Origin: Candidatus Saccharimonadota bacterium
Lineage (GTDB): Bacteria > Pseudomonadota > Gammaproteobacteria > Enterobacterales > Enterobacteriaceae
Direction of reading: 5' to 3'
Assembly: GCA_015134435.1 (NCBI GenBank)
Contig: CP043989.1
Span: forward strand, 60,001 to 92,000
Length of the DNA stretch: 32,000 nt
In this document: positions 2,939 to 32,000 of the stretch, piece after piece
How the letters are laid out: each line of letters begins with the position of its first letter
Position numbering within the stretch: the stretch's first letter is position 1
Program-made: the position numbers and the translations under genes
Notes under the pieces: model-generated
What the model was told of the DNA's origin: nothing
The model's database searches: none
Seen by the model: only the letters and a program-made list of their open reading frames with translations

Positions 2939-4354
2939 ATGAAAAATAATATAATTACAAGATTTGCACCTAGTCCTACTGGTTATTTACATATTGGTAA
3001 TATAAGAATAGCTTTATATTCTTGATTATATGCAAAAAAAAATAATGGTAAATTTATTTTAAGAATAGAAGATACTAATTTAAATAAATTTAATAAAAAA
3101 TATTCTGATTATATATTATATGTTTTAGAATGATTAGGTTTATATTGAGATGATGAAATATATTATCAATCTGATCGTATTGATATTTATAAAGATATAA
3201 TAAATTATATGTTATTTAATAATTTAGCTTATAAATGTTTTTGTTCTATTAATAGATTAAATAAAATACGTAAAATATGTATTAAAAAGGGTATTAAACC
3301 TAAATATGATAATTTTTGTAGAGATAAAAATTTAAATTATAATAATATTCCATATGTAGTAAGATTTAAAAATTCTTTATATGGAAATATTGTTTTTAAA
3401 GATATTATATTTAATAAAATAATTTTTAATAATTATGAATTAGATGATTTTATAATACAAAGAAGTAATGGAATTCCTACTTATAATTTTTGTGTTGTTG
3501 TAGATGATAATTATATGTCTATAACTCATGTTATAAGAGGAGAAGATCATATTAATAATACACCTAAACAAATAAATATTTTTAAATCTTTAAATTATAA
3601 AATACCTAAATATATTCATTTACCTATTATATTAGATTTAAATAAAAAAAAAATATCTAAAAAAAATTTTTTATTTAATATAAAAAAATATATTAATGAA
3701 GGTTATTTACCTATATCTATATTAAATTATTTATTATTTTTAGGTAGATTAAATATTAATTATAAATTTAATAATATAAATGAAATGAAATATATATTTA
3801 ATTTATTTAAATTAAAAAAATCTTCATGTATATTAAATATGAAAAAAATTTTATTTTTAAATAAATATTATTTATCAAATGTTTCTTATAATTATTTAAA
3901 ATTATATTTTAAATATTATATTATTAATAATAATATAATTTTAGATTATTTAAATAATTTAGATGAAATAATATCTTTTATATTACCTAGAAGTTATTTA
4001 ATTAAAGATATAGTTAATTTTTGTTTAATATTTAATAAATATATATATTTTGATTCTTTACTTATAATTAAATATAAAAATAATTATTCTTATTTAATAT
4101 TATTATATTTATATAATAAAATAAAAAATTTATTTTTTTGAGATATAAAATATATTGATTTTTATATAAAGAAATTATTAAAAAAATTTAATTATTTAAA
4201 AATAAAATATATATATAAAATTTTACATTTTTTTATAACAGGTAAAGAAATAACTCCTAATATTAATAAAATAATTTTATTATTAAAAAAAAAAAAATTT
4301 TTATTTAGAATAAAATATTGTATTAAAAAATATTTATTTAATTTTATTAAATAA
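2939..4354 (+). CDS. gltX: Glutamyl-tRNA synthetase
   Basis: ATG at 2939. [47 protein letters not shown] carries the HIGH motif, with TGA at 3023-3025 at the conserved Trp. It continues in frame through ORF 3209..4141 (VIRGEDHINNTPKQ, KISKK as the KMSKS equivalent) and one more TGA to TAA at 4352-4354, giving 471 aa. Confidence 0.95.
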
Positions 4355-6052
4355 AATTTTTTTTAATTTTTTTAAAATATTAATATTGTTTTTATTATTT
4401 AAATAATTTAATATTGATTTTTTTTTTTTATTACTTATATTATTTATAATTTTAATATTTTTTTTATTTAATTTAATAAAATTTTTAAAATTACATATAA
4501 TTTTACTTATTTTTATTGATGTATATTCTCCAATATTTGGAATACATAATGAATAAATTAAATTATTTAATTTTATTTTATTTTTTGATAATTTTATTGA
4601 TATAATTATTTTATTTGCTAATTTATTTTTTATTTTTGGTATTTTTATTAATTTTTTTTTAGTTATTTTAAAAATATCTAATATAGATTTTATATATTTA
4701 TATTTTATTAATTTTTTTATTATATTTTTTCCTAAACCTATTATATTAAATGATTTTTTTGAAACAAAATGTGTTATATTATTAATAATTTGTTCTGGAC
4801 ATTTAGTATTTGAATAACATTTTGGTATTTTTTTGTTTGTATTTATTTTTTTTTTACAAAATGGACATTTTTTAATTAAATATTTATTATTATTTTTTTT
4901 AATTATTTTTACAATTTTTGGTATTACATTTCCTTTTCTTTCTATAACTACATAATCATTAATATTAATATTTTTTTTTTTTAAATAATTTAAATTATAT
5001 AAATTTATTTTTTTTATTTTTACTTTATTAATTTTTATTTTTTTTACATGAATAATTGGTATTATTACTCCATTTCTATTTATTTTAAAATTTATTTTTT
5101 TTACTTTTGTAATTTTTTTTTTTGAAGGGAATTTTCATGCTATACATCATTTAATATATTTATTATTTTTACCTATTTTTTCTTGTATATATTTATTATT
5201 AACCTTAATCATTATTCCATCGATTTCAAAATTTATTTTTTTTTTAATTTTTTTAATTTTTTTATAATATTTTTTTATATTATTAATATTTTTATATAAT
5301 TTAGTTTTTTTTTCTATTTTAAATCCTAATTTTTTTATTTTTTTTAAACTTTTATATTGAGTTAAAAAATTTTTTCTATTATTATTTATTATAATATCAT
5401 ATGCTATAAAAGATAATTTTCTTTTTTTTATTATTTTATAATTTAAAGTTCTTATTGTTCCAGAAACTAAATTTCTACTATTAGAAAAATTTTTATTTTT
5501 ATTTATTTTTAAAAAATTTTTTTTAGAAATATAAATTTCACCTCTAATTTCTAAAAAATTTATTTTATCTTTATGTTTTATATATTTAGGTATTGAATTT
5601 ATATATTTAATATTTTTTGTTATATCTTCTCCGTATAAACTATCTCCTCTAGTTAAAGCTTTATATAAATAATTATTTTTATAAATTAAAGTAATAGCTA
5701 CTCCATCTATTTTTAATTCACAACATAAATCTTTTATTTTATATTTTTTTTTAATATTATTTATATATTTATATACATCTTTGAAATAATAGCATTTTTT
5801 TATAGATAACATAGGTATATTATGTTTTAAAATTTTAAAATTTTTTATATATTTATAATGTATATTTCTATTAGGATTATTTTTATATTTTAAAAAAGGA
5901 TATTTTTTTTTTAATTTTTTTAATTTTTTATTTAAAATTTTATATTTTTTATTTGAAATTATATTTTTTTTTTTAAAAAAATAATAATAATTAAATATTT
6001 TAATTTTTTTTTTAATTTTTAAAAATTTTTTTTTAATTTTATTAATATTCAT
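4334..6052 (-). CDS. ligA: NAD-dependent DNA ligase, apparently without the C-terminal BRCT domain
   Basis: ORF 5147..6052 holds the adenylation domain with the KxDG motif (CELKIDGVA). It continues through TGA codons (WCIAWKFPS matches YAIAFKFPA of E. coli) into the OB fold, a four-Cys zinc finger (CPFCKKKINTNKKIPKCYSNTKCPEQ) and the HhH region. TAA at 4334-4336 gives 572 aa, against about 670 aa in E. coli. Confidence 0.92.
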
Positions 6053-6350
6053 ATTTTATTAAATAAATTTTATAAATATATAATATATTTAAAATATTTT
6101 ATATTTTAAAATAATAATTTTTTAATAATAAATAAATTAATATAATGTTATTTATTTAATTTTATATTATATTTAAAATTTTATAAATATTTATATTTTA
6201 TTTTAATTTATTTTATATATATTTTTATTTTAAATATAATAATTATTTTTTAATATAAATAATAATTTATTATTTTATTATTATATTATTTTTTTATTTT
6301 TATTTTTTATAAAAATATTTTAATTTAAATAATTAATAATTTTTAATAAA

Positions 6351-6458: not shown

Positions 6459-7259
6459 TTATATTTTATATGTATAAAAATTAATTATATTGATTTTTTT
6501 TTTATTTAAAAAATTTTTAATTTTAATTTTATTATTAAAAATAAATTTTTGTTCTAATAATATATTTTTTTTAAATTTTTCATTAATTTTATATATATTA
6601 TTTTTTTTATTATTAGAATTTATTTTTTTTATATTTTTTTTTAATATATTTTTTGGAATATTTTTAATACTTATATATTTAGGATTCATAGAAGTTATAT
6701 GCATACATATTTGTTTTATATATTTTTTATTTATTTTATTTTTATAAGTATTTATTTTTAATATAGTACCTATTTTTTTATTATAATGTAAATATTTATT
6801 TATATATTTACCTTTTAAAAAACAAATATTATCTATTAATATATTTTCATTAAATTTTAATATTAAATATTGTATTTTTTTTTTAAAATATTTTTTTATT
6901 TTTTTTAAAATAAAAATTTTTTTTTTTAAACAGAAATTTATTATTTTTTTAGAAAATTTTTTAAAAATAATATTTTTAGATGTAAAATCTGTTTCGCATA
7001 ATAATTTTAACATAATTGCAATATTATTTTTTATTTTATTTATAATTATTCCTTTTTTAGGCAAATTATTTTTTTTAATTTTATTTTTTTTTAAAAATAT
7101 TATAGATTTTTTTAAATTATAATTATTTTTTTCTAAAGCTTTTTTACATTTTTTTATACTTATATTTGTTAAATTTCTAATTTTTTTTATTAAATTTATA
7201 TTATTTTTTTTATTATTATTATTTAATTTATTGTTTTGCATATAATATTTAAATATCAT
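6459..7259 (-). CDS. tsf: Elongation factor Ts
   Basis: The ORF 6459..7259 is 266 aa. LIKKIRNLTNISIKKCKKALEKNNYNLKKSIIFLKK matches the EF-Ts N-terminal UBA-like domain, LLCETDFTSKN matches VNCQTDFVAKD, and MHITSMNPKYI matches MHVAASKPEFI. The start is uncertain: ATG at 7259, or ATG at 7241. Confidence 0.9.
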   Translation of the reverse strand: MIFKYYMQNNKLNNNNKKNNINLIKKIRNLTNISIKKCKKALEKNNYNLKKSIIFLKKNKIKKNNLPKKGIIINKIKNNIAIMLKLLCETDFTSKNIIFKKFSKKIINFCLKKKIFILKKIKKYFKKKIQYLILKFNENILIDNICFLKGKYINKYLHYNKKIGTILKINTYKNKINKKYIKQICMHITSMNPKYISIKNIPKNILKKNIKKINSNNKKNNIYKINEKFKKNILLEQKFIFNNKIKIKNFLNKKKINIINFYTYKI

Positions 7260-8730: not shown

Positions 8731-9492
8731 TTAATAATTTTTTCTATAATAAATTTCTTTAATTTCTTTTCATATTATTTTTATTATTTTTTTTTTTTTT
8801 TTTTTATTTAAATTTAATTTTTTTATATATAAAATATTTTTATTTATATTTATTTTTTTTTTAATCATTTTTGTATAAAATATATTTTCATTATATATAT
8901 TTATATCTATTAAATCATAAATATTTTTATTTTTTTTTGATATGAAATTTTGTATTGAATTTATTTTATTATCTATAAATATTTTTTTATTTTTTATATT
9001 TATTGAAAATCCTCTTATTTTATAATCTATTATAATTAAATCAGATTTAAATTTTGAAATTAAATAATTAATTAATTTTAATACTGTAGTTGATCCATAT
9101 ATATATATATTTATATCTATTTTTATTATAATTATATTTTTTTTAAAATTATTTTCTTGATATATATTTATAAATATATAATTTTTATTTATATTTGATA
9201 TTATATTATTATTTTTATTATTTTTTTTTTTAATTTTTTTAATTAATATTATAATATTTATTTTTTTAAAATTATTTTTTTTTATATAAAGATTTATTAT
9301 TTTATAATTTATTATTTTTAATATTTTTTTTATTATATTTTTAATTTTAATTTTATTATATTTTTTTTTAAAATAATTAAATATAATTTTTTTATTTTTA
9401 ATAAAATTTATATAATATATTTTATAAATATAAAGATTTAAATTTTTAATTAAATTATCAGAATTATATATTTTATTTTTTTTATGTTTCAT
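8731..9492 (-). CDS. speD: S-adenosylmethionine decarboxylase proenzyme homologue (E. coli SpeD class), with the processing-site Ser replaced
   Basis: ORF 8770..9492 plus read-through of TGA 8770-8772 to TAA 8731-8733 gives 253 aa. It aligns without gaps to my recalled E. coli SpeD: LKLINYLISKFKSDLIIIDYKIRGFSINIKNKKIFIDNKINSIQNFISKK vs [62 protein letters not shown] vs NVYQENIFHTKM, and the tail WKEIKEIYYRKNY vs WKEMREIYYGRNM. Confidence 0.85.
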
Positions 9493-9643
9493 AATTTTTT
9501 ATATTAAATATATATATATTATAAAAAAATTATTTTTTAAATTTATTATTTTATATTATTATATAATATTTTATATTAATTGTTTATTTTATTTTTTTAT
9601 AATATTATATATTTTATTTATTTTTTTATATTATTTATATTAA

Positions 9644-11547: not shown

Positions 11548-12459
11548 ATGTATATTCAATTTTTAGGAACTAATGCTGGCACTCCTTCTATAAGAAGAAA
11601 TGTTAGTAGTATGGCTCTTATTTTAAATAGTAATATTTATGAGATATGATTATTTGATTGTGGAGAAGGTACTCAAAATCAAATTTTATATACTTCTATA
11701 AAATTAAATAAAATTAAAAAAATATTTATTACACATATGCATGGTGATCATATTTTTGGTTTAATTGGTTTATTAACTAGTAGATCTATGTGTAATAGTA
11801 ATAATTTATTAGAAATTTATGGTAGTAAAGGTATAAAAAAATTTGTAAAATTAAATTTAAAATTAACTAATTGTTGTATTAATTTTCCTTTAAAAATATT
11901 TGAAATAAAAGAAGGTAAATTATTTAATGATGGAAATTATAAAGTAAGTTGTTTTTTATTAAATCATACATTAGAATGTTATGGTTTTTATATTAAACAA
12001 TGTAATAAATTAGGACATTTAAATGTAAAAAAATTAATATTTGATGGAATATATCCTGGTCCAATATATAAATATTTAAAATTAGGAAAAAAAGTTTATT
12101 TTAATGAAAGAATAATTAATGGTAAAAAATATTTAGGAAAAAATATAAAAGGAAAAAAAATTGCAATTTTAGGTGATACACGTCCTTTAAATAAAAAATG
12201 TATTTATTTATATAATTTAGATGTTTTGATATATGAATCTACTTTAAAACATAATATGTTTAAAGAAGCTAATTCTAGAGGACATTCTACTAATATACAA
12301 GCAGCTATAATTGCTAAAAAATATAATGTAAAAAAATTAATTATTACTCATTTTAGTTCTAGATATTCAAATAAAGATCTTAATTTTATATTAAAAGATT
12401 GTTGTAAATATTTTTTAAATACTAAAATAGCAAAAGATTTTTATATTTTTAAAATATAA
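11548..12459 (+). CDS. rnz: Ribonuclease Z / RNase BN (metallo-beta-lactamase fold)
   Basis: ATG at 11548. MYIQFLGTNAGTPSIRRNVSSMALIL...IWLFDCGEGTQNQIL...IFITHMHGDHIFGLIGLLTSRS matches E. coli RNase BN (FLGTSAGVPT, WLFDCGEGTQHQ, HLHGDHLFGLPGLL). There is one in-frame TGA. The gene is 303 aa and ends with TAA at 12457-12459. Confidence 0.92.
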
Positions 12460-13268
12460 ATTATTTTATTAATAGTTAAAATTTTTATAATATTTTTTAT
12501 TATTTAAAATATTTAAGTATTATGTTTTATTAATATTATTTATAATAATTGATTTAAATATATTAAATTTTTATTTTTTATATTTTATTTTTTTTATATT
12601 AAATATTAATTTTTTTATTTTATTTTAAATTATATATAATATAAATATATTTTTATTAATAATATTAAAATATTAAAAAATTTATTATTAAAATTAAAAA
12701 AATTAAATATTTTTTTTTAAAATTAATTTATTAAATATTTTTAAAATTTTTAAAAATAATTTTTTAAATTATTTAAAAGTAAATTTTAAAATAAAATTAT
12801 ATTTTAAAATAATTTATAAATATTTTAAAATTTGTTATTTTTTAATAATTATTAATTTTATATTATATAAAATATATAATTACTATTAAATATTAATATA
12901 TTTAATAAAAAATTTTATTATATATAATTTTTTATCATTTTAAATATATTATTATATAATATAATTAATATTAATAATAATATATATATATAAATATATA
13001 TATATTAATTATTATTTATAAATTATTAAATATAAAAAATAATTTAAATATTTTAATTATATTTAATATTAATTATTTTATTTATTAATTATTTTATAAA
13101 ATTTTAAATTAATGAATAAATATAAGTTAATAAAATATTATTTATATTAAATTATAAAATTATTAATAAATTTAATTAATTTATATAAAATAAATTTAAT
13201 ATTAAATTATTTTTATTATTTTATTATTTTTATAAAAAATATATATTTTTTTATAATATAAATTTAAT
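12460..13268. other. 809-bp non-coding spacer, about 99% A+T
   Basis: I count only about 10 G/C in 809 nt. TAA stops are dense in all six frames and no ORF is present. It contains (TA)n palindromes (about 12981-13006) and phased T5A4-type tracts (about 12738-12831). Confidence 0.8.
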
Positions 13269-13973
13269 TTATTTATTTTTTTTTATTCCTATTAATTTTA
13301 AATTTAATAAATTTAAATTAATTAAATCTAAATATAATATTAATGCTCCTAATATTGAATATTTTTTTAATTTTTTATTTTTTTTCGATATACATATTCC
13401 TATTTCTTTTAATTTTTGATTATCTCAAGATATTAATATACAAAATGATAATATTCCTAAATATGATGTTATTCATATAATAAAAGAGCTTTTTAATAAA
13501 ATATTAATTAAATTATTTATTATTATATTTATTATAAATATTAATGAAATATTTCCTATTTTTGTTAAATTTATTTTAGATTTATATCCTAATAAACTCA
13601 TAATTAAAAATATAATATTACAAATTATAAATGATATTTTTATTGAATAATATGTATATATTAAAAATATATTTGATATTAATATTCCTATTAATATTGA
13701 ATAAATTATAAATAATAAATTAATAATATTTGTTCTTAATTTATTAATTACATTAGAAAGTAAAAAAATAATAATTAATTGATTTATTAAGAAAGTAAAT
13801 AAAAATAATTTATTAAAAAATATTATTTTTTTAAAAAATGGAATTTTTTTTATACATCATGATGTAAAAAAAGTTATTAATAATCCATATAAAACTCAAT
13901 TATATACTTTATTTATATAAATATTAATATTATTTACAGTATTTTTATAAAAATAATATGAATATTTTTTCAT
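13269..13973 (-). CDS. ybhL: Bax-inhibitor-1 family inner-membrane protein (YbhL/YccA family)
   Basis: It is absent from the ORF track because four TGA codons fragment it. I translated it manually from ATG 13973 to TAA 13269-13271 (234 aa, multi-pass hydrophobic). KVYNWVLYGLLITFFTSW matches QVYGWMTVGLLLTAFVAW, WDNQKLKEIG matches YDTQKLKNMG, and KKYSILGALILYLDLINLNLLNLKLIG matches RKYSILGALTLYLDFINLFLMLLRIFG of my recalled E. coli YbhL. Confidence 0.8.
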
Positions 13974-14410: not shown

Positions 14411-16636
14411 TTAATTAATTAAAGCATTAAATTTATTTTTTAATAAATTTTTACATTTATTAATAATATTATTTATTTCTTTTTTTTTTAATGTTTTTTT
14501 ATTATCTTGTATATTTAATCTTAATGTTATATTTTTTTTTTTATTTTTTTTTAAATAATTATTATTATATATTTTTATAATATTTATTTTTTTTATTATT
14601 TTTTTATTAATTGATAAACATTTTTTTATTATATTATTTATTTTTATATTTTTATTTATAATTATTGTTATATCCCTTTTATTATTTTGATATTTTGATA
14701 TATTTTTAATTATTTTATTTTTTTTAAATAATATATTTTTTATTTTTATTTCTAATAAATATATTGGGTGTTTAAATAAATATTTTTTTTGTAATTTATA
14801 ATTTAACATCCCCATATAACCTATTTTTTTTTTTTTATAAAATATATCTGTATTTTGATTTTTATCTAATATCTTATTATTAGATTTTTTTATATATAAA
14901 TGTTTTTTTTTATTTCTTTTTTTAAAAATATATTCTAAATCTCCTTTTATATCATAAAAATCAAAATATTTATTATTTGTATATCATTTATCTTTATTTT
15001 TATATCCATATAATATTAAAGATAATTTTTTATATTCTTTAATTTTATTGTTTTTTATATTAAAACATGTACCTAATTCAAAAAATTTAATACTTTCTTC
15101 TTGTCTTTTAATATTAAAATATACAGTTTTTAACATATTTAATATTAAAGAAATTCTTAATCATCCCATATTTTTAGATATTGGATTATATATTTTTATA
15201 TTTTTATATTTTTTAAATAATTTATTTTCTTTATTTTTATTAATAAATTGAAAATTTATTATTTCTATATATCCTATATTTTTAATTATATTTCTAATTT
15301 TATTTATTTTTTTTGAAATATTTATTTTTTTATTAATTATAATTTTAGTTTTAAAATTTTTTATAGGAATTTTATTATATCCATATATTTTTAATATTTC
15401 TGATATTATATTTTCTATAATATATATATTATTTTTTCATTTTGGTAATTTTATAATTATATATTTTTTTTTTTTTTTTATTATTTTATATTTTATAGAT
15501 TTTATAATATTAATTATTTTTTTTTTATTTATATAAAATCCAATTTTTTTTTTAATATATTTATAATTTAAAATTAATATTTTATTATTATTTTTTTTTT
15601 TATTAATTATAGTATTTGTTTTATTTGATGTTCCTTTATATTTTTTTTTTATTAATTCACATGTTTTTTGTAAAAATATATCTTGTATATTATAATAAAT
15701 ATTACTTATATATTTATTAATTTTAATATTATTTAAATTATTTTTTTTTATAAAATATTTATTATTAAATAATGGTGCAATTAAAATTAAATTTTTAGTA
15801 TTTTTACTTATATGATATTTTTTAATATTTTTTTTTAAAAAAATATTTTCTTTTATATATATATATTTATTTTTTATAAAATTATATTTTTTTATTTTAT
15901 TTAAATCTAAATATATTATTTTTTGTCCTGATTCTATTAAAATATAATTTATTATATCTTTAATATTATTACTTTTTTTTATATTTAATATATTAAATTT
16001 ATTTTCATCATTTATATTTATTTTTTTATTTAAGTATTTAATATTATTTATAATAATATATTTATAATTTATTATATTTTTATCTATTATATTATTTATT
16101 ATAATTAAATTATTTTTAATTTTTTTTTTGATTTTATTTTTATTTATAAATATATTTTTTTTTATTAAAATTGATATTTCTTTACATATTGAATATATAT
16201 TATTACAATTTATTTTATTATATGGTATATTTATATTTAATAAATTTATTTTATTTAAATATTTAATATTTTTTAATAATGTTTTTTTTTTTTTATATAA
16301 TATAAATATATCTTTTTTATAATATTTTTTTTTGATATAAAATAAAAATTTTTTTTTTATATCTTTTTTATTTATTAATATATATTTATTTTTTATATTT
16401 TCTTTATTATATTTTATATATATATTATATATATTTTTTTTATATAATATTTTAATTAAAATTAATTTTAATAATTTTATTTTAAATGAATTTATTTTTT
16501 TTATTATATAATTTTTATTTTTTTTTATATTTATATAATTAGTTTCAAATCCATTATTATTTAATATATTAATTATATTTTTAATATTTATATTATTTTT
16601 TATATATTTTTTAATTCAAGTTTGAGAAAATTTCAT
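14411..16636 (-). CDS. pheT: Phenylalanyl-tRNA synthetase beta subunit
   Basis: ATG at 16636. MKFSQTWIKKYIKNNINIKNIINILNNNGFE matches E. coli MKFSELWLREWV...GLE. The frame is continuous (TGA=Trp) down to TAA at 14411-14413, which includes ORF 14411..14815, giving 741 aa. It starts 26 nt downstream of pheS. Confidence 0.88.
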
Positions 16637-16662
16637 ATATTTTATTTATTAATTATTAAAAA

Positions 16663-18790: not shown

Positions 18791-19988
18791 ATTTAAATTT
18801 TTTAATTTTAAATTTTATTTTTTTAATTAATTTTTTTAATGATGTTGTGTATATTTTATTATTATAAGATCTTATACTTATAATATTTAATTTTTTTTCT
18901 TTATCGCCGCATATTATCATGTAAGGTATTTTTTGTAAAGTATATTTTCTTATTTTAAAATTTATTTTTTTATTTTTAAAATCTCCTATAGAATCAATAT
19001 TATTTTTAATTAATTTTTTTAATATATATTTTGAATATTTTAAATGTTTTATTGAAATATTTATTACTACTATTTTTATAGGTGCTAATCATATTGGAAA
19101 TTTTCCATTATATTGTTCTATTATAATTCCTATAAATCTTTCTAATGAACCTAATATTGCTCTATGTATTATTATAGGATATTTTTTTTTATTATTTTTA
19201 TTTAAATAAATTATATTTAATTTTTTTGATAAAAAATAATCTAATTGTATTGTCCCACATTGTCATTTTCTATTAAAAAAATCTTTTAATATAAATTCAA
19301 TTTTAGGTCCATAAAATGCACCTTTTTTATTTTTAATTTGAAATTTTATTTTTTTTTTTTTTAAAATATTAATAATTTTATTTTCTGCTATATTTCATAT
19401 TTTTTTTTTTCCTAAATATTTTTTTGGTCTAGTAGATAAATATATTTTTATATGTTTAAATTTAAATTTAAATATTTTATATATTTCATAAGTCATATTT
19501 ATACATTTTGATATTTCAATTTCAATATTTTTTGAATTACAAAATATATGAGCATCATCTTGAATAAATGATTTTGTTCTCATTAATCCATATAAAGATC
19601 CAGAATTTTCATTTCTATGACATATTCCAAATTCAGATATTCTTAAAGGTAAATTTTTATAAGATTTTATTTTTTGTTTATATATTTCTATATGACCTAA
19701 ACAATTCATTGGTTTAATACATAAAATTTTATTTTTATATTTTGTATAGAATATGTATTTTTTATAATTTTTTCAATGTCCGCTTTTTAATCATATATTT
19801 TGATCAATTAAAAAAGTTGTAATTACTTCTTCATATTTATATTTTTTTAATTTTTTTCTTATTAATTTTTTTATATTTTCTAAAAGTTTAAATCCATTAG
19901 AATGTCAAAAAATCATTCCAGGTGATATATTACTTGTATGATATAAATTTAATTTTTTATTTAATAATCTATGATCTATATTTTTCAT
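18789..19988 (-). CDS. thrS: Threonyl-tRNA synthetase, catalytic core plus anticodon-binding domain only (N-terminal TGS and editing domains absent)
   Basis: ATG at 19988. [36 protein letters not shown]... aligns with E. coli ThrRS starting near residue 240 ([29 protein letters not shown]). It continues through [17 protein letters not shown] 19395..19709 ([31 protein letters not shown]), [10 protein letters not shown] and [16 protein letters not shown] to CGDKEKK and TAA at 18789-18791. That is 399 aa, against about 640. Confidence 0.92.
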
Positions 19989-20045
19989 TATTTTATTTTT
20001 AAAAATATTTATTTTTTTTAATTATATAAAATATATTAATATATA

Positions 20046-20653: not shown

Positions 20654-23600
20654 ATGTTTACATTATATCAATCTAATAATTTAAATATTTTGAAAGAAAA
20701 TATGTTATATATTATAAAAAAAAATAAAATAAATAATATTTTTTTTTGTAATAATTTTATATTAGTTCCTAATAATAATGTTTCTTTAAATATAAAAATT
20801 TTTTTAGCTAAAAAATTAGGTATATGTGCAAATTTTAAATTTTTATTATTAAATAATTTTATATTAAAAATTTATAAAATAATTATACCTAATATTTATA
20901 AAAATAATTATTTTAATAAAAATAATTTATTATTAATAATATTTAATATTTTACCTAAACTTATAAAATTAAATGAATTTTTGATAATAAAAAAATATTT
21001 AAATTATGATTATAGTTATGAAAAATTATTTTATTTATCAATTAAAATTTCTAATATTTTTTTTAAATATTTAATTTATAGATTAGATTGATTATATAAA
21101 TGAGAAAATTATAAATATGTAAAAAATATTAATAATTTTATTCATCAAAAATGACAATCTATATTATGAAGAGAAATAAAAAAATTTATTAGTAATAAAT
21201 TTTTATTTAATTTTAATAAATTTAATATTTATTTTGAATTTTGTAATAAATTAAAAAAAAAAAATTTTATTTTTCCTAAAAATATTATTAATAATATTAA
21301 TATATTTAATATTTCATATATACCACCTATTTATATAAATATTTTATATTTAATATCAAAATATATTAATGTTAATTATTTTTTATTTAATCCATGTTAT
21401 AAAATTTGATATAAAAATATATTTTTTAATAATAAAAAAAGTAATTTTAAATGTTATAAAGAATATAAATCTTTTAATAATAAAAATAATTATAATTTTA
21501 TTTTATTAAATTATGGTAAAAGTTTTTCTAAACATTTATTATTATTATCAAAATTAAATATTAAAAAAATAAATTATTTTATAGATATAAAAAGAAATAA
21601 TAAATTAAATATTATTAAAAATAATGTTTTACATTTTAATAATAATTTTAGTAAAATAAAAGATGATAATTCTATTATAATTAATAAATCTAATGGATAT
21701 ATGGAAGAAATAAAAAAATTAAAAAATTTTTTATTTGATTTAATTATTAATAAAAATTATAATGTTAATGATATAATTGTAAATGTAACAGATATTAATT
21801 TATATTCTATATATATAGAATCAATATTTTCTAATAAATTTTGTAAAAAATATTTACCTTTTAAAATATTAGAAAATAATAATTTTTATAATAATGAATT
21901 ATTAAATATATTTTTAAATTTATTAAATATATATAATTTAGAATTTAATTTAGTTGAATTATTATGTTTTTTTAAAAAAAAAGTAATATTTAAGAAATTT
22001 AATATTAATTATGAAGAATTAAAAGTTATTTTATATATTATAAAAAATATTGGTTTAAATATAAATTTAAATGAAAAATTGAATAAAAATATAACTAATA
22101 AATTTAATTATTTAACTTTAATAAATTGATTAAAAAGAATTTTATTAGGTTATTGTATAGATAATGAATATTATATTTGAAATAATATTATTCCTTATAG
22201 TTATTTATCTAATAATTTTTATTATGATTTAATTGAAAAAATATTAAAATTTTTTGATAAAATTTTATTTTGAAAAAATATTTTAAATAAAAAATATTTA
22301 TTCTCTGATTGAATTTTTATATGTATAAAATTTATAAATAATTTTTTTTATAAAAAATATTTAAATAAAAGTTGTTTTTTAAATAAAAATATTTTCTTTT
22401 CTATTTTAAAAAAATATAAAATTTATTTTTCTAATAAATATTTAGATATTAATATTTTTAAAAAAATTTTAATTTATTTTTTAAAATGTAAAAAAAAAAA
22501 AAAAATATATTCTATAGATTGTATAAATTTTTGTTCATTTAATTATTCTGAATCTTTATTTTTTAAAGTTATATGTTTAATTGGAATGAATGAAAATATT
22601 TATTTAAAAAATAAAATTTATTGTAATTTTGATTTAATTTATTATAATTGAAGAATAGGTGATTATGATAAAAATAATAATAATAAATATTTATTTTTAC
22701 AAAAAATTTTATTTTCAAATAAATTATATATAAGTTATATTAATTTTTCTTTTATAGATAATAATTTTAATTTTCCATCTATATTATTAATTTTTTTAAA
22801 AAATTATATATCTATATTTATAGATAAAAATTTTTTATATAGAAAAAAAAAAAATAATTTTATTTTTTTAAAAAAAAATATATATAATATAAAAAAATAT
22901 AATTTAAATATATCTAATTATATAAATAAAAATAAATATTTTAATATATTAAATAATAAATATATTATTAATTTATTTAATTTACATAATTTTTGATTAA
23001 ATCCAATTAAATATTTTTTTATTTATTATCATGGTATAAATTATTTTATTGATAATATATATATTAATAAAAATGAAAATTTTGATTTAAATATAAAAAA
23101 TTTTTATTTATTTAAATTTAAAATTATAGATATTTTAATAAAATATGGAAATATAAATAATATTTATTTATATTTAAAATATTTAAATTTATTTCCTATT
23201 AATAATTTTGGTAAAATATTATGAAATAAAGAAAAAAAAAATATTTTTAATTTAGTTGAAAATATTAAAAATTTTTATTTAAAAATTAAAAAAATTAAAA
23301 TTAAATGTATAATTAATAATTATATTATAAAAGGTTATATATATAAAAATAATAATTTAGGTTTATTTAAATGATTACCTAAAAAATTAAATTTAATAGA
23401 TGCTTTATTATTATGAATAGATCATTTATTATATTGTTATATGGGTGGTAATAAATGTAGTTATTTATATGGATATAATAGTATATGATGTTTTTTACCT
23501 ATAGATAAATATAAATGTATAAAATATATAAATAAATATATTAATGGTTATTTAAATAGTTTTAATTATCCTGTATTTTTTTTACCTAAATCTTCAAATA

Positions 23601-23842
23601 TATGAATATTTTCAGCTTATAATATTAAATATAAATTTTTATTAAATAAATATTTTATTGAAAAAGCTAAAGAAAAATTATTTAATAGTTTATATGGAAA
23701 TTTTTTTATAAAAGGTGAATTATATGATATATATATATCTTATATAATTAAAAAATATTATAATTTTTTAAATATTAATTTTATAATACAAGAAATAGAA
23801 AAATGATTATTACCTGTATTTAATAATTTAATTATTAAATAA
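20654..23842 (+). CDS. recC: Exodeoxyribonuclease V gamma subunit (RecC)
   Basis: ATG at 20654. MFTLYQSNNLNILKENM matches E. coli MLRVYHSNRLDVLEALM. I translated the whole gene manually and the only interruptions are TGA. Conserved blocks include YLIYRLDWLYKWE, ISYIPPIYINIL, LFNPCYKIWYKNI, LLGYCIDNE, FKVICLIGMNENIY, NKYLFLQKILFSNKLYISYI and LHNFWLNPIKYFF, with the tail WLLPVF. TAA at 23840-23842 gives 1062 aa. Confidence 0.93.
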
Positions 23843-23853
23843 TTAATAAATTT

Positions 23854-26496
23854 ATGATTAATAATAAAAATTTTTTAAATATTTATTTAGGAAAATCTAA
23901 TTTAATAGAATCTTCAGCTGGTACAGGAAAAACACATATTTTATCATTATTATATTTACGTTTTTTATTAGGTATAAATATTGAATATAATTTTTTAAAT
24001 TTATTTATTAAAAATATTTTAGTAGTTACTTTTACTGATGTAGCATGTTTAGAAATAAAAAAAAGAATATTTTCGAATATTAGAAAATTACGTACTTATT
24101 TTTTTAAAAAAATAAATATTGATGATTATATAAAAAATATATTTTTATATATTAAAAATATTCCTAATATATTAAATATATTAATAAATTGTGAAAATAA
24201 TATTGATACTATTTCTATTTATACTATACATGGATTTTGTAAAAAAATTTTATTTTCTTATTTTATTAATTCAAATATAAATTTTTATTCAAAAATTTTA
24301 AATTATGAAGATAAATTTATTTATAATATAATAATACTTTTTTGACGTAAGTATTTTTATAATTTATCTTTTAATATAATTAAGATAATTTATTCTTATT
24401 GAATTAATCCTATGTGTTTATATAAATATATATATTGTATTTTAAATTTTACTAATTTTAAATTTAATAGTATATTAAAATATTTTTCTATAGAAGATTG
24501 TTATAATAAAATTATTAATTATATTAATGATTTTAAAAAAAAATGAATTTTAAATTATAAATATATATATAAATATATAAATTCATTAAAATTTAATTTT
24601 TTTTTATATAATAAAAAAAAAATAGAAATATGATTTAATTATATAAATTTATGATGTAAAAATAAAAATATTGATTTTTATATTCCTTTTTGTTTAAAAA
24701 ATTTTAGTTATAAATATATTTCTAAATATATATTTTTTTTAGATTTTAATATTAAAAATATATTTATTTATATAGATAAATTATATTTTATAATTAATGA
24801 TTTACGTAATTTTATTATATTTAAATGTTTAGAATATATTAATATTAAAAAAAATATATATAAAGAAAGAAATAATTTTATTAGTTTTAATGATTTAATA
24901 AATAAATTAAATTATATATTAAATAATTATGAAAATAATTTTTTATTAAATGATATTAGAAATAATTATCCAATATGTTTAATTGATGAATTTCAAGATA
25001 CAGATATTTTACAATTTAATATATTTAATAATATATATATAAAAAATAAATTTAATAATACTAAAATAATTTTTATTGGTGATCCTAAACAATGTATATA
25101 TACATTTAGAAATGCTAATATTTTTAATTATTTTAAAGTAAAAAATAATGTAGATTTTTTATATATTTTAAATATTAATTGAAGATCTTCTTATTTTTTG
25201 GTTAAAAGTATAAATTATATTTTTAATAAAATTAAAAATATTTTTATATTTAAAGATTTAAATTATATATCCGTTTTACCTTCTTATAAAAATAAATTTT
25301 TATTTATAAAAAAAAATAAATTAATTGATTTTAGTATAAAATTTTTTAATTTAAATAATTTTAATAATTTAAATTATAAAATAAATATAGCTAAATTTTG
25401 TTCTATTAAAATATATAATTTATTAAATTCTAAAAAATATTTTTTATATAAAAATAATATTAAAAGAAAAATATTACCTTCTGATATTGCTATTTTAGTT
25501 CATAAAAATTATGAAATTAAAATTTTTTTTGATATATTAAAAAAATATTTTTTACCTATTAATTGTATATTAGAAAAAAGTAATATTTTTTCTTCTTTAG
25601 AAGCAAAAGAAATTTTTTTTGTATTAAAAGCTATAATTTTTCCTGAACATAAATTAAATATAAAAAATGCGTTATTTACTAATATATTTAATTATGATTT
25701 ATTTACTATAAATAAATATATTAATAATTATAAATTATATATAAATATTATAAATAATTTTTATTATTATAATAATATATGAGATAAATATGGTATTTAT
25801 TCTTTAATAAATTTTTTATTAGAAAATAAAAATATTAATAATAATAATAATTTTGTAAATTATAAAAATGAACAATTTAATATTAATTTATTACATATAG
25901 CTGAAATTTTGCAAAAAAAATTTTGTTTAATAAATGATAAATTTTTATTATTAAATTGATTAAATGAAAAAATTAATAATTTATCTGATATAAATAATAA
26001 AGAATATTATTTACGTTCTTTTTCTTATGAAAATGAAGGTATTAAAATATCTACAATACATAAATCTAAAGGATTACAATATAATATAGTTTGAATACCA
26101 TTTTTATTTTTTTTAAATAAATTTAATAATTTTAATATTTATTATAATCGTAAAAATTGTAAAATTAATATAGATTTATTTAATTTAAAAAAAAATAATA
26201 ATTTTATGAATGAAGAAATTATTTCTGAAGAAATGCGTTTATTATATGTAGCTATAACTAGATCTATATATCAATGTAATATTATTTTATATAAAATATT
26301 TAATAAAAATAAAAATTTTAATTGTATTAATAGAATTATAAATAATAATAAAAATTTAATTTTTTTTAATTATAAATATATTAATTTTATTAATATTAAT
26401 ATTTTTAAATATATTAAAAAAAATAATTTTTATATAATAAAATATATTTTACAAAAAAATAATAATTTAAAAATAAAAAAAAAAAAAAAAAATTAA
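23854..26496 (+). CDS. recB: Exodeoxyribonuclease V beta subunit (RecB), helicase portion; the frame terminates just after an A18 run
   Basis: ATG at 23854. SF1 helicase motifs are present: ESSAGTGKTH, VVTFTDVA, IYTIHGFC, LIDEFQDTD, IFIGDPKQCIYTFRNANI, NINWRSS, ISTIHKSKGLQYNIVWIPF and RLLYVAITRS. The frame is continuous through TGA=Trp until AAT TAA at 26491-26496. That is 880 aa, with no nuclease domain in this frame. Confidence 0.92.
26475..26492 (+). repeat. A18 homopolymer at the recB frame junction (candidate slippage site)
   Basis: There are 18 consecutive A from 26475 to 26492. The upstream recB frame stops 2 nt after the run. The downstream nuclease-domain frame becomes open at 26477, inside the run. 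Confidence 0.9.
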
Positions 26497-27292
26497 AATA
26501 ATTAATTATTCTAATATTATTTTATTAAATAAAAATATATTATTTAATAATATAAAATGTTTAAATAAAAATATTTTTTTTTTAAATTTACCTAAAGGAA
26601 AAAAAATAGGAAATTTTTTTCATAAAATTTTTGAAAAAATAAATTTTAAAAAAACAATATGTAATAATTTTTTATTAAAATATATATATAAATATAATAT
26701 TAAAAAAAAATATATTTTTAATATAAAAAAAATTTTAATTAATACATTAAATGTAAAATTATATCCTTTAAATATAAATTTATTAAATATTAAATTTAAT
26801 TTAATATTAAAAGAATTTAATTTTTTTTTATATATTAATAAATCAATTAATTTTATAAAATTTAATAATATTATTAAAAAATATGATAAAATTTCAAATT
26901 CATGTAATGATTTAAATTTTAATAATTTTATTAAAGGATATTTAAATGGAACAATAGATTTAATTTTTAAATATAATAATAAATATTATATTATTGATTA
27001 TAAATCTAATTGATTAGGAAATAATATTATTAATTATAATAAAAAAAATATAAAAAAAAATATAATTTATAATAGATATGATATTCAGTATCAAATATAT
27101 TCTATTGCTTTACATAATTATTTAAAATTAAATTTAATTACATATGATTATTCTTTGCATTTTGGTGGTATTTTTTATATATTTTTAAGAGGTTTATTTA
27201 TTGAAAATAATTATAGATCTTATAGTGGTATTTTTTATATAAAACCAAATAAAAAATTAATTTTTAAATTAAATAATTTTTTTAAAATATAG
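26477..27292 (+). CDS. recB: RecB C-terminal nuclease domain, in the +1 frame relative to the helicase part, with no canonical start codon of its own
   Basis: The frame is open from 26477. LPKGKKIGNFFHKIFEKINF matches FPRGASPGTFLHSLFEDLDF. GYLNGTIDLIFKYNNKYYIIDYKSNWLG matches GMLKGFIDLVFRHEGRYYLLDYKSNWLG and retains the catalytic D...DYK motif. YDIQYQIYSIALHNYL and HFGGIFYIFLRG also match. The stop is TAG at 27290-27292. There is no in-frame ATG, GTG or TTG upstream of the conserved nuclease motifs (first about 27157). Confidence 0.88.
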
Positions 27293-27300
27293 GTATTATT

Positions 27301-29187
27301 ATGATTTTTAATGAAGTAGAGAAATTTTTATGATCTTGTTATAAAAAAAAAGAAGCAACTTTATTAGATATATATTTTTCTAAATTATTATGTAAAGAAA
27401 ATAATTTTAATTATTCTGTTATAATGTTATTTAATTTTTTAATTAGTTTATCTAATAGATTAGGGAATATATGTCTTCCTATTTGTGAAATTTTAGGTAA
27501 AAATATATTTACTAAATATATATATAATTTTTTAATTTATTTTTTTAATAAATATATTAATATTTATAATTGTATTAATATATTATTTAAATATAATTTT
27601 ATAAGTATTTATTATAAAAATTATACAACTCCTTTTATATTATATAAAGATTGTATTTATTTACATAAATTTTGAGTATATGAGAATTATATATCTAATT
27701 TTTTTAAAGTTAATTATAGAAAAAAAAAAAAATTAAATAATAAAAAAATTTCTTATATATTTAAATATTTGAAAATTTTTAATATGGATATATATCAAAA
27801 AATATCTATGTTAAATATTTTTTTTAATAAAATATCTTTTATTTCAGGTTCACCTGGTACTGGTAAAACAACTATTATTGCTAAATTAGTTTATATATTA
27901 TATAAAATATTTAATTTTAAATCTAAAAATGATATTAAAATAGCATCTTTTACTGGAAAATCTTCTTCATATTTAACAAATATATTAATAAAAAATTATA
28001 AATTATTAAAAATTAAAAAAAAAATATATAATAATTTACCTAATAAAGCAACAACAATACATAAATTATTTAATTTAAATATTAATTTAAAAAAAAATAA
28101 TAATATTAATAATAAATATCATTTAAAATTTAATATTTTAATTATAGATGAATTTTCTATGATAGATATAATTACTTTATATTATATATTTTATTTTTTA
28201 AATAAAAAATTTATAAAAATAATTTTTTTAGGAGATAGTAATCAAATAGGTCCTATAAATTCTTGTTCATTATTAAATGAAATATGTAATTATAATTATT
28301 CTTTTTTTAATAAAAATAAAGATATTATTAATTTTTTATTAAAATATAAATTTAATTTTTTAAAATTTAATATAAATATTAATAAATTAAATAATAATAT
28401 ATCTTTTTTATTAAAAAATTATCGTTTTAAAAAAAATAAATATTTAAATATATTTTCTAATTATATAAATTGTGGTGAATATAGTAAAATAGATGAATTT
28501 TTGTATAAAAATAATTTTAATAAAAATATAAATTTTTATGATTCTAATAAATTTGATTATAATTTTTTAATTAATTTTTGTATAAAAAAATATAAATATT
28601 ATATTAATTATATAAATAATAATAATATTAATTTTAATAAATTATTATATTATTTTAATAAATTTCAAATTATATCAATAATAAAAAATTCTAAATTTGG
28701 TACTTTTTATTTAAATAAATATATTAATAATTTTTTTTTATCTAAATATATAAATGATAATTTAATATATATAGATAATAAAAATAAAATTTATTATAAT
28801 GGACAACCTATAATTATTACAAAAAATAATAATGATATAAATATATATAATGGTGATATAGGGTTTATATTATATAATAAAAATAAATTAAAAATTTTTT
28901 TTTCAAATATTAATAATAATAATAATATTATTATTTATTTTAATAATTTTATTTTTTGAGAATTAACATGAGTTATAACAGTACATAAATCGCAAGGATC
29001 AGAATTTAATCATATATTATTAATAATACCTAATTATTTTTATAATTTGTTAGATAAAAAAATATTATATACTGCATTAACTCGTTCTATAAAAAAAATT
29101 AGTATTTATTCAAATAAAGATATGTTTTTAAATATTATTAAGAGAAATAAAGTATATTATAATAATATTATAAATAAATTAATATAA
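27301..29187 (+). CDS. recD: Exodeoxyribonuclease V alpha subunit (RecD)
   Basis: ATG at 27301. The frame runs through ORFs 27424..27675 and 27769..28959 via TGA. Motifs ISGSPGTGKTT, ASFTGKSS, TIHKL, IIDEFSMID, IFLGDSNQIGP, YRF, NGDIGFI, TVHKSQGSEF and YTALTRS are present. TAA at 29185-29187 gives 628 aa. Confidence 0.93.
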
Positions 29188-29919
29188 TTTTAATATTTTT
29201 TTATTAAATATTATTAATATTAATAATTTTAAATTTATATTTTTATTTTTTTTTATATTTATTTCATTTTTTTTTATTAAATTTAATATTTTTTTTTTTT
29301 CAATATTTTTATATTTATATATATTTTTAATAAAATATTTAAATAATATATTTAATATTAATATTTTATTAAATTTTTCATTTTTTATTTTATCTATTAA
29401 ATATAAAATTTTTTTTATATTTTTTTTATATAATAATAAAATTATATTTTTTATATAATTAAAGTTTATATATTTATTATAATATATAATATTTTTACTA
29501 TAATTTTTATTATATATTATAGTTATAATATTATTAATTTTTTTTTTAAAATTTATTAATTTAATATAATTAAAATCTATAATTAATATTATAAATATAT
29601 ATTTGTTTATTTTTTTTATTATATAATTAAATATATAATAATTTATATTATTTATTTTTTCTATTATATTAATAATAATTAATTTTTTTTTTGAAAATAA
29701 ATTATTTTTTATTATAATATTTATTAAATTATTTCAATTATATTTTTTATTTATTATTACATTTATAATATTATTTTTATTTATTTTTTTTAATAAAATT
29801 TTTTTTATTTTATTTTTACAATTTTGTTTTTCTATATAATTATTTCCTATAATATAATAAAAATTATATTTTTTTTTTATTTTTTTTTTAGAAAATTTAT
29901 TATAAAAAATTTTATTCAT
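29179..29919 (-). CDS. holA: DNA polymerase III delta subunit, shortened
   Basis: ATG at 29919, 5 nt after the leuS stop, which is the conserved leuS-(lptE)-holA position. YNFYYIIGNNYIEKQNCKNKIKK matches AAYLLLGNDPLLLQESQDAVRQV, and NWNNLINIIIKNNLFSKKKLIIINI matches DWNAIFSLCQAMSLFASRQTLLLLL of my recalled E. coli HolA. TAA at 29179-29181 gives 246 aa, against about 340. The rest is too diverged to align by eye. Confidence 0.7.
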
Positions 29920-29924
29920 AATAA

Positions 29925-32000
29925 TTATGTTATAAAATTAATAATTTTATTTTTTATATATATAATATTTTTTATTTTTTTATTTTTTAAAAAAATTTTT
30001 ATATTTTTATTTTTATATATATATATTAATATTTTTTTTTTGTTAAGTGTATTTTTAATTTTTATTATTTTTTTAGTTTTACCATTTATTTGTAATATTA
30101 TTTTTATTTTTTTTTTAATTATTATTTTTTTTTTATTTATTTTTGGTCATAAAGAATTGTCTATAATTTTTTTATTTTTCATTTTTTTTCATAAATAAAA
30201 TGTAATATGAGGACAAAATGGATATATTAAAATTATAATTGTATTAATACATTTTTTTATTAAATTATAAATTTTTTTATTTTTTATTTTTTTATTTTTT
30301 TTTATTAAATTAAAAAAAATCATTATTTTAGATATAATTGTATTAAAATTATTTTTTTTATTTAAAATATATGTTGTTTCTTTTATAATTTTATTTAATT
30401 TATATTTTATATAATAATATTTTTTAATATTTATTTTTTTATTATAATTTATTTTTTTTTTTTTTTTAAAATTAAATATTAAAATTCATAATTTATTTAT
30501 AAATCTATAACATCCTTTTATATTTAAATCATTTCAATATAAATTTTCATTTATAGGTGCAGAAAATATTATAAATAATCTTAATGTATCAGCTCCATAT
30601 TTATTTATTATTTTTAAAGGATTTATTCCATTATTTTTAGATTTTGACATTTTATTTTTACCAGAATATATTAATTTTATATTTTTATTTTTTAAATAAA
30701 AATATGTTTTATTATTTTTATATATTTTTTTAACATTTTTTTGTGATATTCAAATTTTTTTATTTTTTTTAAAATAATAATATGTATCTGATAAAACAAT
30801 ACCTTGACAAATTAATCTTTTTACTGGTTCATTAGATTTTATTAATCCTATATTTTTAAAAAATTTATGAATAAATCTAAAATATATTAAATGCATTGTT
30901 GCATGTTCTATTCCTCCTATATATGTATCTATAGGTAATCAATAATTAGCTTTTTTACTTTTAAATATATTTTTTTTATATTTTGGACATGTATATCTAA
31001 TATAATATCATGATGATTCCATAAAAGTATCAAGTGTATCTGTTTCTTTTTTTCAAATTTTATTTTTTAATTTTATTTTTTTTCATTTTTTTATTTTTTT
31101 TAAAAAATTTTTATTTGAATTAATATTTTTTATTTTAGGAAATTTAACAGGTAATTTATTTTTTTTTATAGTTTTATATTTGTTATTATTTTTTATTATA
31201 GGTATTGGAACACCTCAATACCTTTGTCTAGATATAACTCAATCTTTTAATTTAAAAATAATTTTTTTTTTAATTAATTTTTTTTTAATTAAATATTTTT
31301 TTATATTTTTAATATTTATTTTTTTTTTTTTTAATTTAATTAATTTATATTTTTTAATAAAATAATTATGTTGTTTATTAAAATTAGGACATATTAGTAT
31401 TGCATTTGTATTATATAATTCTTCTGTAAAATTAGTTATTCAAATAGGAATTTTATGTTTTGTAATTGGATTTTTTATATATAAATTAGTATTTATACCT
31501 ATACATTTATTAATATTTTTAATATTATTTTTATATATTTTGTTTTTTATTTTATTAAATATATTTGGATTTTTTTTTTTAATAAAATTAATTATTTTAT
31601 TATTAATAGATATACTTATACATAAAGTTGATATTAATAAATTTATATTTTTTATAAATATTTTTATTTTTTTTTTAGTTTTATAAATATTAATATTTAA
31701 TTCTAATCCTTTATATTTACCTATTCATTTTTTTTGCATATTTATGACTTTTTTAGGTCATTTATTTAATTTATTTAAATCATTATTTAATTTATTAGCA
31801 TATTTAGTTATTTTTATAAATCATTGTGATTTTTTTTTATATTTTATTATTGAATTACATCTTCAACATTTATTATTTATTACTTGTTCATTTGCTAATA
31901 CTGTTTTATCTATAGGACATCAATTAATTATTTTTTTTTTTTTATATATTAATTTTTTTTTAAATAATTTAATAAATAATAATTGTTCTCATTTATAATA
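29925..32000 (-). CDS. leuS: Leucyl-tRNA synthetase (N-terminal ~130 aa lie beyond the right edge)
   Basis: The frame starts at 32000 as YYKWEQLLF (E. coli YYRWEQKFF). It continues through [46 protein letters not shown] and the KMSKS motif ([15 protein letters not shown] at 30650-30648). The tail [10 protein letters not shown]...KIINFIT ends at TAA 29925-29927. All internal interruptions are TGA. Confidence 0.93.

Follow-up and report, generated by a model that had tools for sequence, protein, structure and literature searches.

A frame change at a poly(A) tract between the helicase and nuclease parts of recB in the beetle symbiont Candidatus Stammera capleta

How can a gene be split between two reading frames by a single run of A and show no other damage? 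This question is raised by recB in the genome of Candidatus Stammera capleta. The window analysed here is the 32,000-nucleotide stretch at positions 60,001 to 92,000 of contig CP043989.1 (GenBank assembly GCA_015134435.1), and positions are counted from its first nucleotide unless another accession is named. In this window, the helicase part of recB ends at a tract of 18 A (A18) and the nuclease part follows in the +1 frame, with both halves conserved and with recC and recD intact on either side. The source genome is tiny (212,704 bp) and extremely AT-rich (about 10% GC), and Stammera is an extracellular, pectinolytic symbiont of tortoise beetles. The GC content of the window was 6–13% along its whole length. 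The window was read under genetic code 4, in which TGA encodes Trp, and every sequence statement made here depends on this code. Under code 11 recB and its neighbours appear shattered, whereas code 4 gives long open reading frames (ORFs), and in the annotated frames of the window Trp was encoded by TGA 91 times and never by TGG.

Anatomy of the recB frame break

The helicase part of recB occupies 23854–26496 on the forward strand and consists of an ATG start at 23854, 880 codons and a TAA stop at 26494–26496. Its product, which ends in NNLKIKKKKKN, is identical to the protein of this genome in the NCBI database and matched Pfam UvrD-helicase (E = 7.5e-40) as well as UvrD_C. The A18 tract at 26475–26492, where the frame changes, codes for a run of Lys in the linker between helicase and nuclease. 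Inside this tract the +1 frame opens, and the nuclease part runs in this frame from 26477 to 27292 (forward strand, 271 codons and a TAG stop at 27290–27292). Directly 5′ of the tract the +1 frame is closed by a TAA at 26474–26476, and any productive frame change is therefore confined to the tract itself. The initial annotation, which had placed a +1 frame change in recB exactly at this A18, was confirmed, coordinates included. Its further claim, that one A fewer or two A more would restore the full-length protein, also held, as both A17 and A20 gave a single ORF, of 1145 or 1146 amino acids. The joined A17 product scored 736.1 bits against the TIGR00609 recB model (cut-off 696.05), its residues 8–1141 covering model positions 4–1173 of 1175, and neither half alone would pass this cut-off. 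No second lesion and no other stop or shift was found in the 3.4 kb of recB. Chance does not yield a shift of frame that coincides exactly with the tract and leads into a homologous frame open for 271 codons.

The +1 nuclease frame contains no ATG and no GTG. Its sole TTG is codon 227 (27155), which lies past all catalytic motifs, and the start-codon scan thereby bore out the earlier statement that none of these three codons precedes the conserved nuclease motifs. The sequence upstream of the frame is pure A and carries no Shine-Dalgarno-like element. The lack of ATG and GTG in the nuclease frame makes its independent translation unlikely.

The product of the nuclease frame aligned with residues 945–1172 of E. 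coli RecB (E = 2e-38) and with positions 942–1174 of the NCBIfam recB model (E = 2e-58). In the alignment to E. coli the motif IDLIF is paired with IDLVF and IIDYKSNWLG with LLDYKSNWLG, and the conservation of the catalytic motif and its flanking blocks that had been noticed from the sequence was thus recovered. By residue-by-residue alignment to chain B of 1W36, the active-site codons on the forward strand were assigned to His 26621–26623, Asp 26957–26959, Asp 26996–26998 and Lys 27002–27004, which are equivalent to H956, D1067, D1080 and K1082 of E. coli RecB. The four columns (H923, D1035, D1048 and K1050) are invariant in an alignment of 39 Stammera sequences. The nuclease domain of the C-terminal piece escaped Pfam at E ≤ 0.01. 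This is a problem of sensitivity caused by the biased composition and not a sign of decay, as the searches against PDB and NCBIfam match strongly.

The position of the break in the protein was fixed by anchors on both sides, with residues 788–812 of the joined protein corresponding to E. coli 793–817 and residue 912 to E. coli 945. The Lys run (residues 875–879) accordingly falls at roughly E. coli 880–913, within the 870–940 linker, and the proposal that the junction lies in the natural helicase-nuclease linker is confirmed by these anchors. In E. coli the linker contains a tether at 881–899, and a randomised or lengthened tether is tolerated (PMC6326792). Among the aligned Stammera proteins the break falls in a Lys- and Asn-rich stretch of low conservation, and an almost invariant INYS motif follows 4 residues downstream of it. 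The tether is a neutral place for the growth of a Lys run.

Of the 28 columns in the nuclease part that are invariant across the 39 sequences, all 28 are kept by the window genome. Protein relative-rate tests were used in place of the ratio of nonsynonymous to synonymous substitution rates (dN/dS), because synonymous sites are saturated and locked in composition at about 10% GC. In three-taxon tests against intact sisters, the window branch evolved at 0.71–1.01 times the sister rate in the nuclease part and at 0.86–0.92 times in the helicase part. For CP145602.1, a relative in which recB is also split, the respective ranges were 0.83–1.10 and 0.80–1.05. The presence of full-length recB in about 37 other Stammera genomes implies strong long-term selection on the gene. 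The earlier argument that the nuclease domain is still under selection gains from the unaccelerated rate and from the retention of all invariant residues, but a very recent lesion would look alike. The gene shows no sign of decay, as would be expected if it still functions, if the lesion is very recent, or if there is no lesion.

The tract in relatives and its length in the assemblies

About 40 RecB sequences from Stammera were obtained by a protein search, among which 37 were single proteins of 1146–1190 amino acids and two others, besides that of the window, were split. An alignment-based contig scan contributed one Stammera genome among 80 loci, the rest being distant Gammaproteobacteria unsuited to comparison of the site. 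In CP145602.1 the frame changes at an A20 (locus positions 6602–6621) in the same linker, shifted upstream by 7 residues relative to the window, and the loss of one A or the gain of two restores the frame. In CP144790.1 the change occurs at an A16 (locus positions 6271–6286) inside helicase domain 2A. At the homologous site an in-frame A14 is present in the nearest relative of the window genome (72% identity), and the nearest relative of CP145602.1, 80% identical, has an in-frame A14+A9 at its linker site. The three frameshifted genomes are not relatives of one another, and each of the frameshifts is limited to its own terminal branch of the tree. Decay of the nuclease segment in relatives, raised in the initial annotation as a finding that would speak against a living domain, was looked for and not encountered; all relatives keep the segment. 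With tracts from A14 to A26 among the relatives compared, the tether is a hot spot of poly(A) growth.

The longest of these tracts, an in-frame A26 encoding eight Lys, was observed at the homologous tether position of CP144771.1 (locus positions 3132–3157). The recB of this genome gives an identical translation under code 11 and hence contains no TGA codons.

The published Stammera genomes were made from NEBNext PCR libraries read on HiSeq 3000 or NextSeq 2000 instruments and assembled with MEGAHIT, with curation of local errors. Over 7,000 bp, CP144790.1 and the Logan assembly of SRR23946962 differed in the recB tract and nowhere else. The A16 of CP144790.1 splits the gene into 768 and 384 amino acids, while the Logan assembly has an A15 (locus positions 5271–5285) and a single ORF of 1178 amino acids. 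As the tract differs between the two assemblies, the read population there must be mixed, either through stutter or through real polymorphism. The window genome and the CP145602.1 genome are present in NCBI and absent from Logan, and CP144790.1 is the sole frameshift that could be checked in this way. Exact look-ups of the in-frame products (A17 and A20 for the window, A19 and A22 for CP145602.1) gave no match, which is uninformative since their source genomes are absent from Logan. The Stammera genome paper makes no mention of recB, frameshifts or homopolymers.

Stutter of the polymerase chain reaction (PCR) at mononucleotide runs is usually biased towards contraction. All three recB frameshifts have the in-frame length plus one and need −1 or +2, a direction that matches neither contraction-biased stutter nor rescue by insertion of a single base.

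Long A tracts are common in the window. Its 25 genes hold 130 A tracts of at least 9 nucleotides on the sense strand, the longest being an A19, and only 8 T tracts. The highest counts were found in pheT (14414–16645, 18 tracts), leuS (29928–32000, 14 tracts) and ligA (4337–6055, 12 tracts). Lys is encoded in the window genes by AAA 1881 times and by AAG 14 times. Compared with codon-shuffled genes, the A tracts are not depleted, neither at 9 nucleotides or more (130 versus 87 ± 8) nor at 16 or more (5 versus 3.0 ± 1.6), and the A18 of recB is ordinary here in all but its frame. The four other tracts of at least 16 nucleotides are located in orf255 (A19 at 8787–8805), pheT (15464–15479), recC (22490–22505) and leuS (30452–30467), the latter three being 16 nucleotides long, and all four are in frame. 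This indicates that the frame is under selection at such tracts and that assembly errors are not rampant.

At 10% GC a genome has hundreds of A tracts of at least 9 nucleotides, and a single base in a homopolymer call settles whether a gene enters the annotation as intact, split or a pseudogene. The clade has at least one such call on which two assemblies of the same reads disagree, and the locus may be read as a caution. The abundance of tracts also raises a question beyond recB, namely how essential genes with up to 18 slippery tracts each are expressed. At published slippage rates, most messages of such tract-rich genes would be out of frame.

Explanations for the frame change

We tentatively favour the reading that the A18 is a real or polymorphic +1 variant in tract length in a recB that still functions, and that slippage supplies the full-length protein at a reduced level. 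The reading starts from what the locus displays, which is the anatomy of the break, the integrity and conservation of both halves, the intact recC and recD, and a type of lesion that recurs in sister genomes. That the genomic tract is truly 18 nucleotides long, and that slippage takes place on it and yields functional protein, we infer. The poly(A) of the tether would be one A too long, A18 in place of an in-frame A17, and the message as encoded by the DNA would give the 880-amino acid, helicase-only RecB. The full-length RecB of 1145 or 1146 amino acids would be made in the minority of cases in which a message or a ribosome drops one A or adds two within the tract. Slippage of RNA polymerase on the T18 template, sliding of ribosomes on the A18, or both could serve as routes, and iterated AAA codons let ribosomes slide. 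The tract is twice as long as the RNA:DNA hybrid, and heterogeneity in message length is therefore expected. RecBCD is needed in few copies, which would account for the tolerance of the lesion in recB, whereas essential genes of the window with tracts of A16 to A19 stay in frame.

The reading draws on a published class of genes. As reported in PMC5009743 and PMC3017870, Buchnera and Blochmannia genes with a single poly(A) indel stay under selection and are corrected by slippage of RNA polymerase, and 12–50% of the transcripts of such frameshifted genes are frame-corrected (Tamas et al. 2008, as cited there). The frequency of slippage climbs exponentially with run length (PMC5574713). The recB of Stammera resembles this class (Tamas et al. 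2008; Wernegreen et al. 2010; Williams and Wernegreen 2010, PMC3017870) in that an AT-rich, reduced genome carries a single indel in a long A tract of a gene that is otherwise intact and not accelerated in rate. Among the features of the class, a single indel in an A/T homopolymer of at least 9–10 nucleotides and an otherwise intact gene with no sign of relaxed constraint are found here, whereas conservation of the frameshift among populations or species is not. Like dnaX, dnaG and pth of Blochmannia vafer, the affected gene belongs to information processing. The tracts of Blochmannia are at most about 12 nucleotides long (PMC3017870), in contrast to A18 here and A16 to A26 in relatives. The frameshift in recB also differs from the Buchnera and Blochmannia cases in not being conserved across species and in being known from genomic assembly alone.

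Several observations weigh against rescue by slippage. The frameshift is common to no relative, the closest of which has an in-frame A14, and cross-species conservation, the strongest published argument that frameshifts are maintained under selection, is missing here. Slippage on A/T runs in Buchnera and E. coli is mostly insertion of one base, but recB needs −1 or +2, and the same genome-wide study saw no frame-restoring events in Buchnera (PMC5574713). The rate tests are weak in that they do not separate ongoing function from a very recent lesion. The frameshift of a sister recB vanishes in an independent assembly, where A16 becomes A15, and the A18 call is insecure. Slippage rescue, one of the three options offered in the initial annotation, is thus strengthened by the single indel, the intact and unaccelerated gene and the published precedent, and weakened by the lack of conservation and by the change in length that is needed.

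The frame change at a slippery homopolymer recalls the programmed slippage genes, such as dnaX of E. coli and Thermus, transposases of IS elements, and prfB. Programmed sites are, however, conserved and usually equipped with stimulatory elements, whereas in Stammera some 37 recB genes out of 40 form one in-frame ORF and the tract varies in position and length. A programmed +1 site like that of prfB was considered and ruled out, there being no stop or rare codon beside the shift site, no upstream Shine-Dalgarno-like element and no conservation. No natural bacterial gene is known to be rescued by ribosome sliding. The sliding of ribosomes on lysine-encoding poly(A) that Koutmou et al. reportedly described in 2015 is said to be a phenomenon of error and quality control. 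The present case is similar to it in that iterated AAA lets tRNA-Lys re-pair in any frame within the A18.

The main rival, less probable but serious, is that the A18 is a homopolymer miscount, or that A17 and A18 coexist in the symbiont population inside the beetle and only one allele was assembled, recB being in frame in most or many cells. The in-frame A15 of the Logan assembly, otherwise identical to CP144790.1, is what this explanation would lead one to expect, and the PCR-based Illumina libraries and MEGAHIT assemblies behind the published genomes are compatible with it. The frameshift lies in the longest homopolymer of the examined stretch in CP145602.1 and CP144790.1, and in the second longest, after the in-frame A19, in the window. 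Sixteen further RecB proteins of Stammera have the same sequence in NCBI as in Logan, every one of them in frame, and intact conservation at an unaccelerated rate is exactly what a miscount or a polymorphism predicts. Miscounts would nevertheless have to be infrequent, given the four other in-frame tracts of 16–19 nucleotides in the window, and a surplus of one A in all three genomes runs counter to contraction-biased stutter, so that the Logan A15 could itself be the artefact. The option of an error or a recent event, as originally put, is thus favoured by the sister tract and opposed by the other long tracts. A very recent inactivation without rescue, in which recB begins to decay, the nuclease part is not usefully made and its integrity reflects lack of time, appears unlikely. 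Gene erosion in symbionts is recognised to begin with indels in homopolymers (PMC3017870), the frameshift is limited to a single tip, and this is the smallest genome of the clade (212,704 bp compared with 240–325 kb in relatives). Set against these are the single lesion in the whole gene, the lack of acceleration in either half, the strong long-term selection implied by the full-length recB of the other genomes, and the intact recC and recD, which would be useless without RecB.

Less probable again is a RecB made of two polypeptides, an 880-amino acid helicase and a nuclease of about 266 amino acids that assemble on RecC, with reinitiation for instance at the ATT at 26492–26494, which overlaps the TAA. 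The break sits where experiments in E. coli show that RecB can be cut and still work. There, RecB1-927CD and free RecB928-1180 reconstitute nuclease activity, repair and Chi-dependent recombination in vitro and in vivo (PMC10954480). The Stammera break likewise lies in the linker, at about E. coli 880–913, both halves are complete as in the E. coli split RecB (Pavankumar et al. 2024, PMC10954480; a proteolytic RecB of 100 kDa and 30 kDa), the nuclease piece would hold everything contained in the E. coli RecBn fragment, and CP145602.1 is split in the same linker. The E. coli case, however, is an engineered co-expression with proper starts. In Stammera the nuclease frame has no canonical start, its only TTG lies past the active site and nothing but A stands where a Shine-Dalgarno-like element would be sought; the fused form is kept by about 37 relatives, and the two linker splits differ in position and occur in unrelated tips. 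The two-piece option of the initial annotation is for these reasons disfavoured. The least probable of the explanations considered is that the poly(A) of the tether acts as a mutable, transcriptionally noisy dial, by which Stammera would adjust how much nuclease-less RecB(h)CD helicase it makes relative to complete RecBCD. Changes in tract length, to A14, A18, A20 or A26 depending on the lineage, would then switch the default between these two forms time and again, and an out-of-frame tract might be a tolerated or even selected state of low nuclease and not damage.

If the A18 is real, and slippage rescue as preferred here applies, recB would be a further and unusually long case of a symbiont gene that stays alive across a homopolymer frameshift, undescribed in Stammera. 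The case stands out by the length of its tract, by lying in the RecB tether and by recurring in the clade. Slippage rescue as such is already known, and the case is not mechanistically new.

Gene neighbourhood in the window

The order recC-recB-recD is present in the window, and both flanking genes are intact. The gene recC, encoding the exodeoxyribonuclease V gamma subunit, occupies 20654–23842 on the forward strand and is open under code 4 from the ATG at 20654 to the TAA at 23840 (1062 amino acids). NCBIfam recC models match it at E = 1e-153, and RecC of relatives is 1055–1110 amino acids long and unchanged in position. The gene recD, encoding the alpha subunit, is located at 27301–29187 on the forward strand (628 amino acids, ATG and stop checked) and scored 341.9 bits against TIGR01447 (cut-off 310.15). 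Its start at 27301 is 9 nucleotides past the stop of the recB nuclease frame.

The full gene order of the window is lepB, lepA, gltX, ligA, tRNA-Ser, tsf, rpsB, map, orf255, glnS, rnz, a BI-1 family gene, an HU/IHF gene, pheT, pheS, rplT, rpmI, infC, thrS, ydjM, recC, recB, recD, orf252 and leuS. An Rfam scan of the window gave a single match, to one tRNA. Between rnz and the BI-1 family gene, about 800 nucleotides (12457–13271) contain neither a long ORF nor an Rfam match; such a length is considerable in a genome this compact, and the stretch may represent a gene that has decayed.

The in-frame A19 at 8787–8805 sits on the coding strand of the 255-amino acid ORF (8734–9498, reverse strand), which had no Pfam match. 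The product of thrS (18792–20021, reverse strand) is only about 410 amino acids long, compared with 399–414 in two relatives and 599 in CP145602.1, and judged from these lengths, some members of the clade seem to have lost its N-terminal domains. The 252-amino acid ORF between recD and leuS (29182–29937, reverse strand) likewise had no Pfam match; its position is kept in relatives, where it is 236–262 amino acids long.

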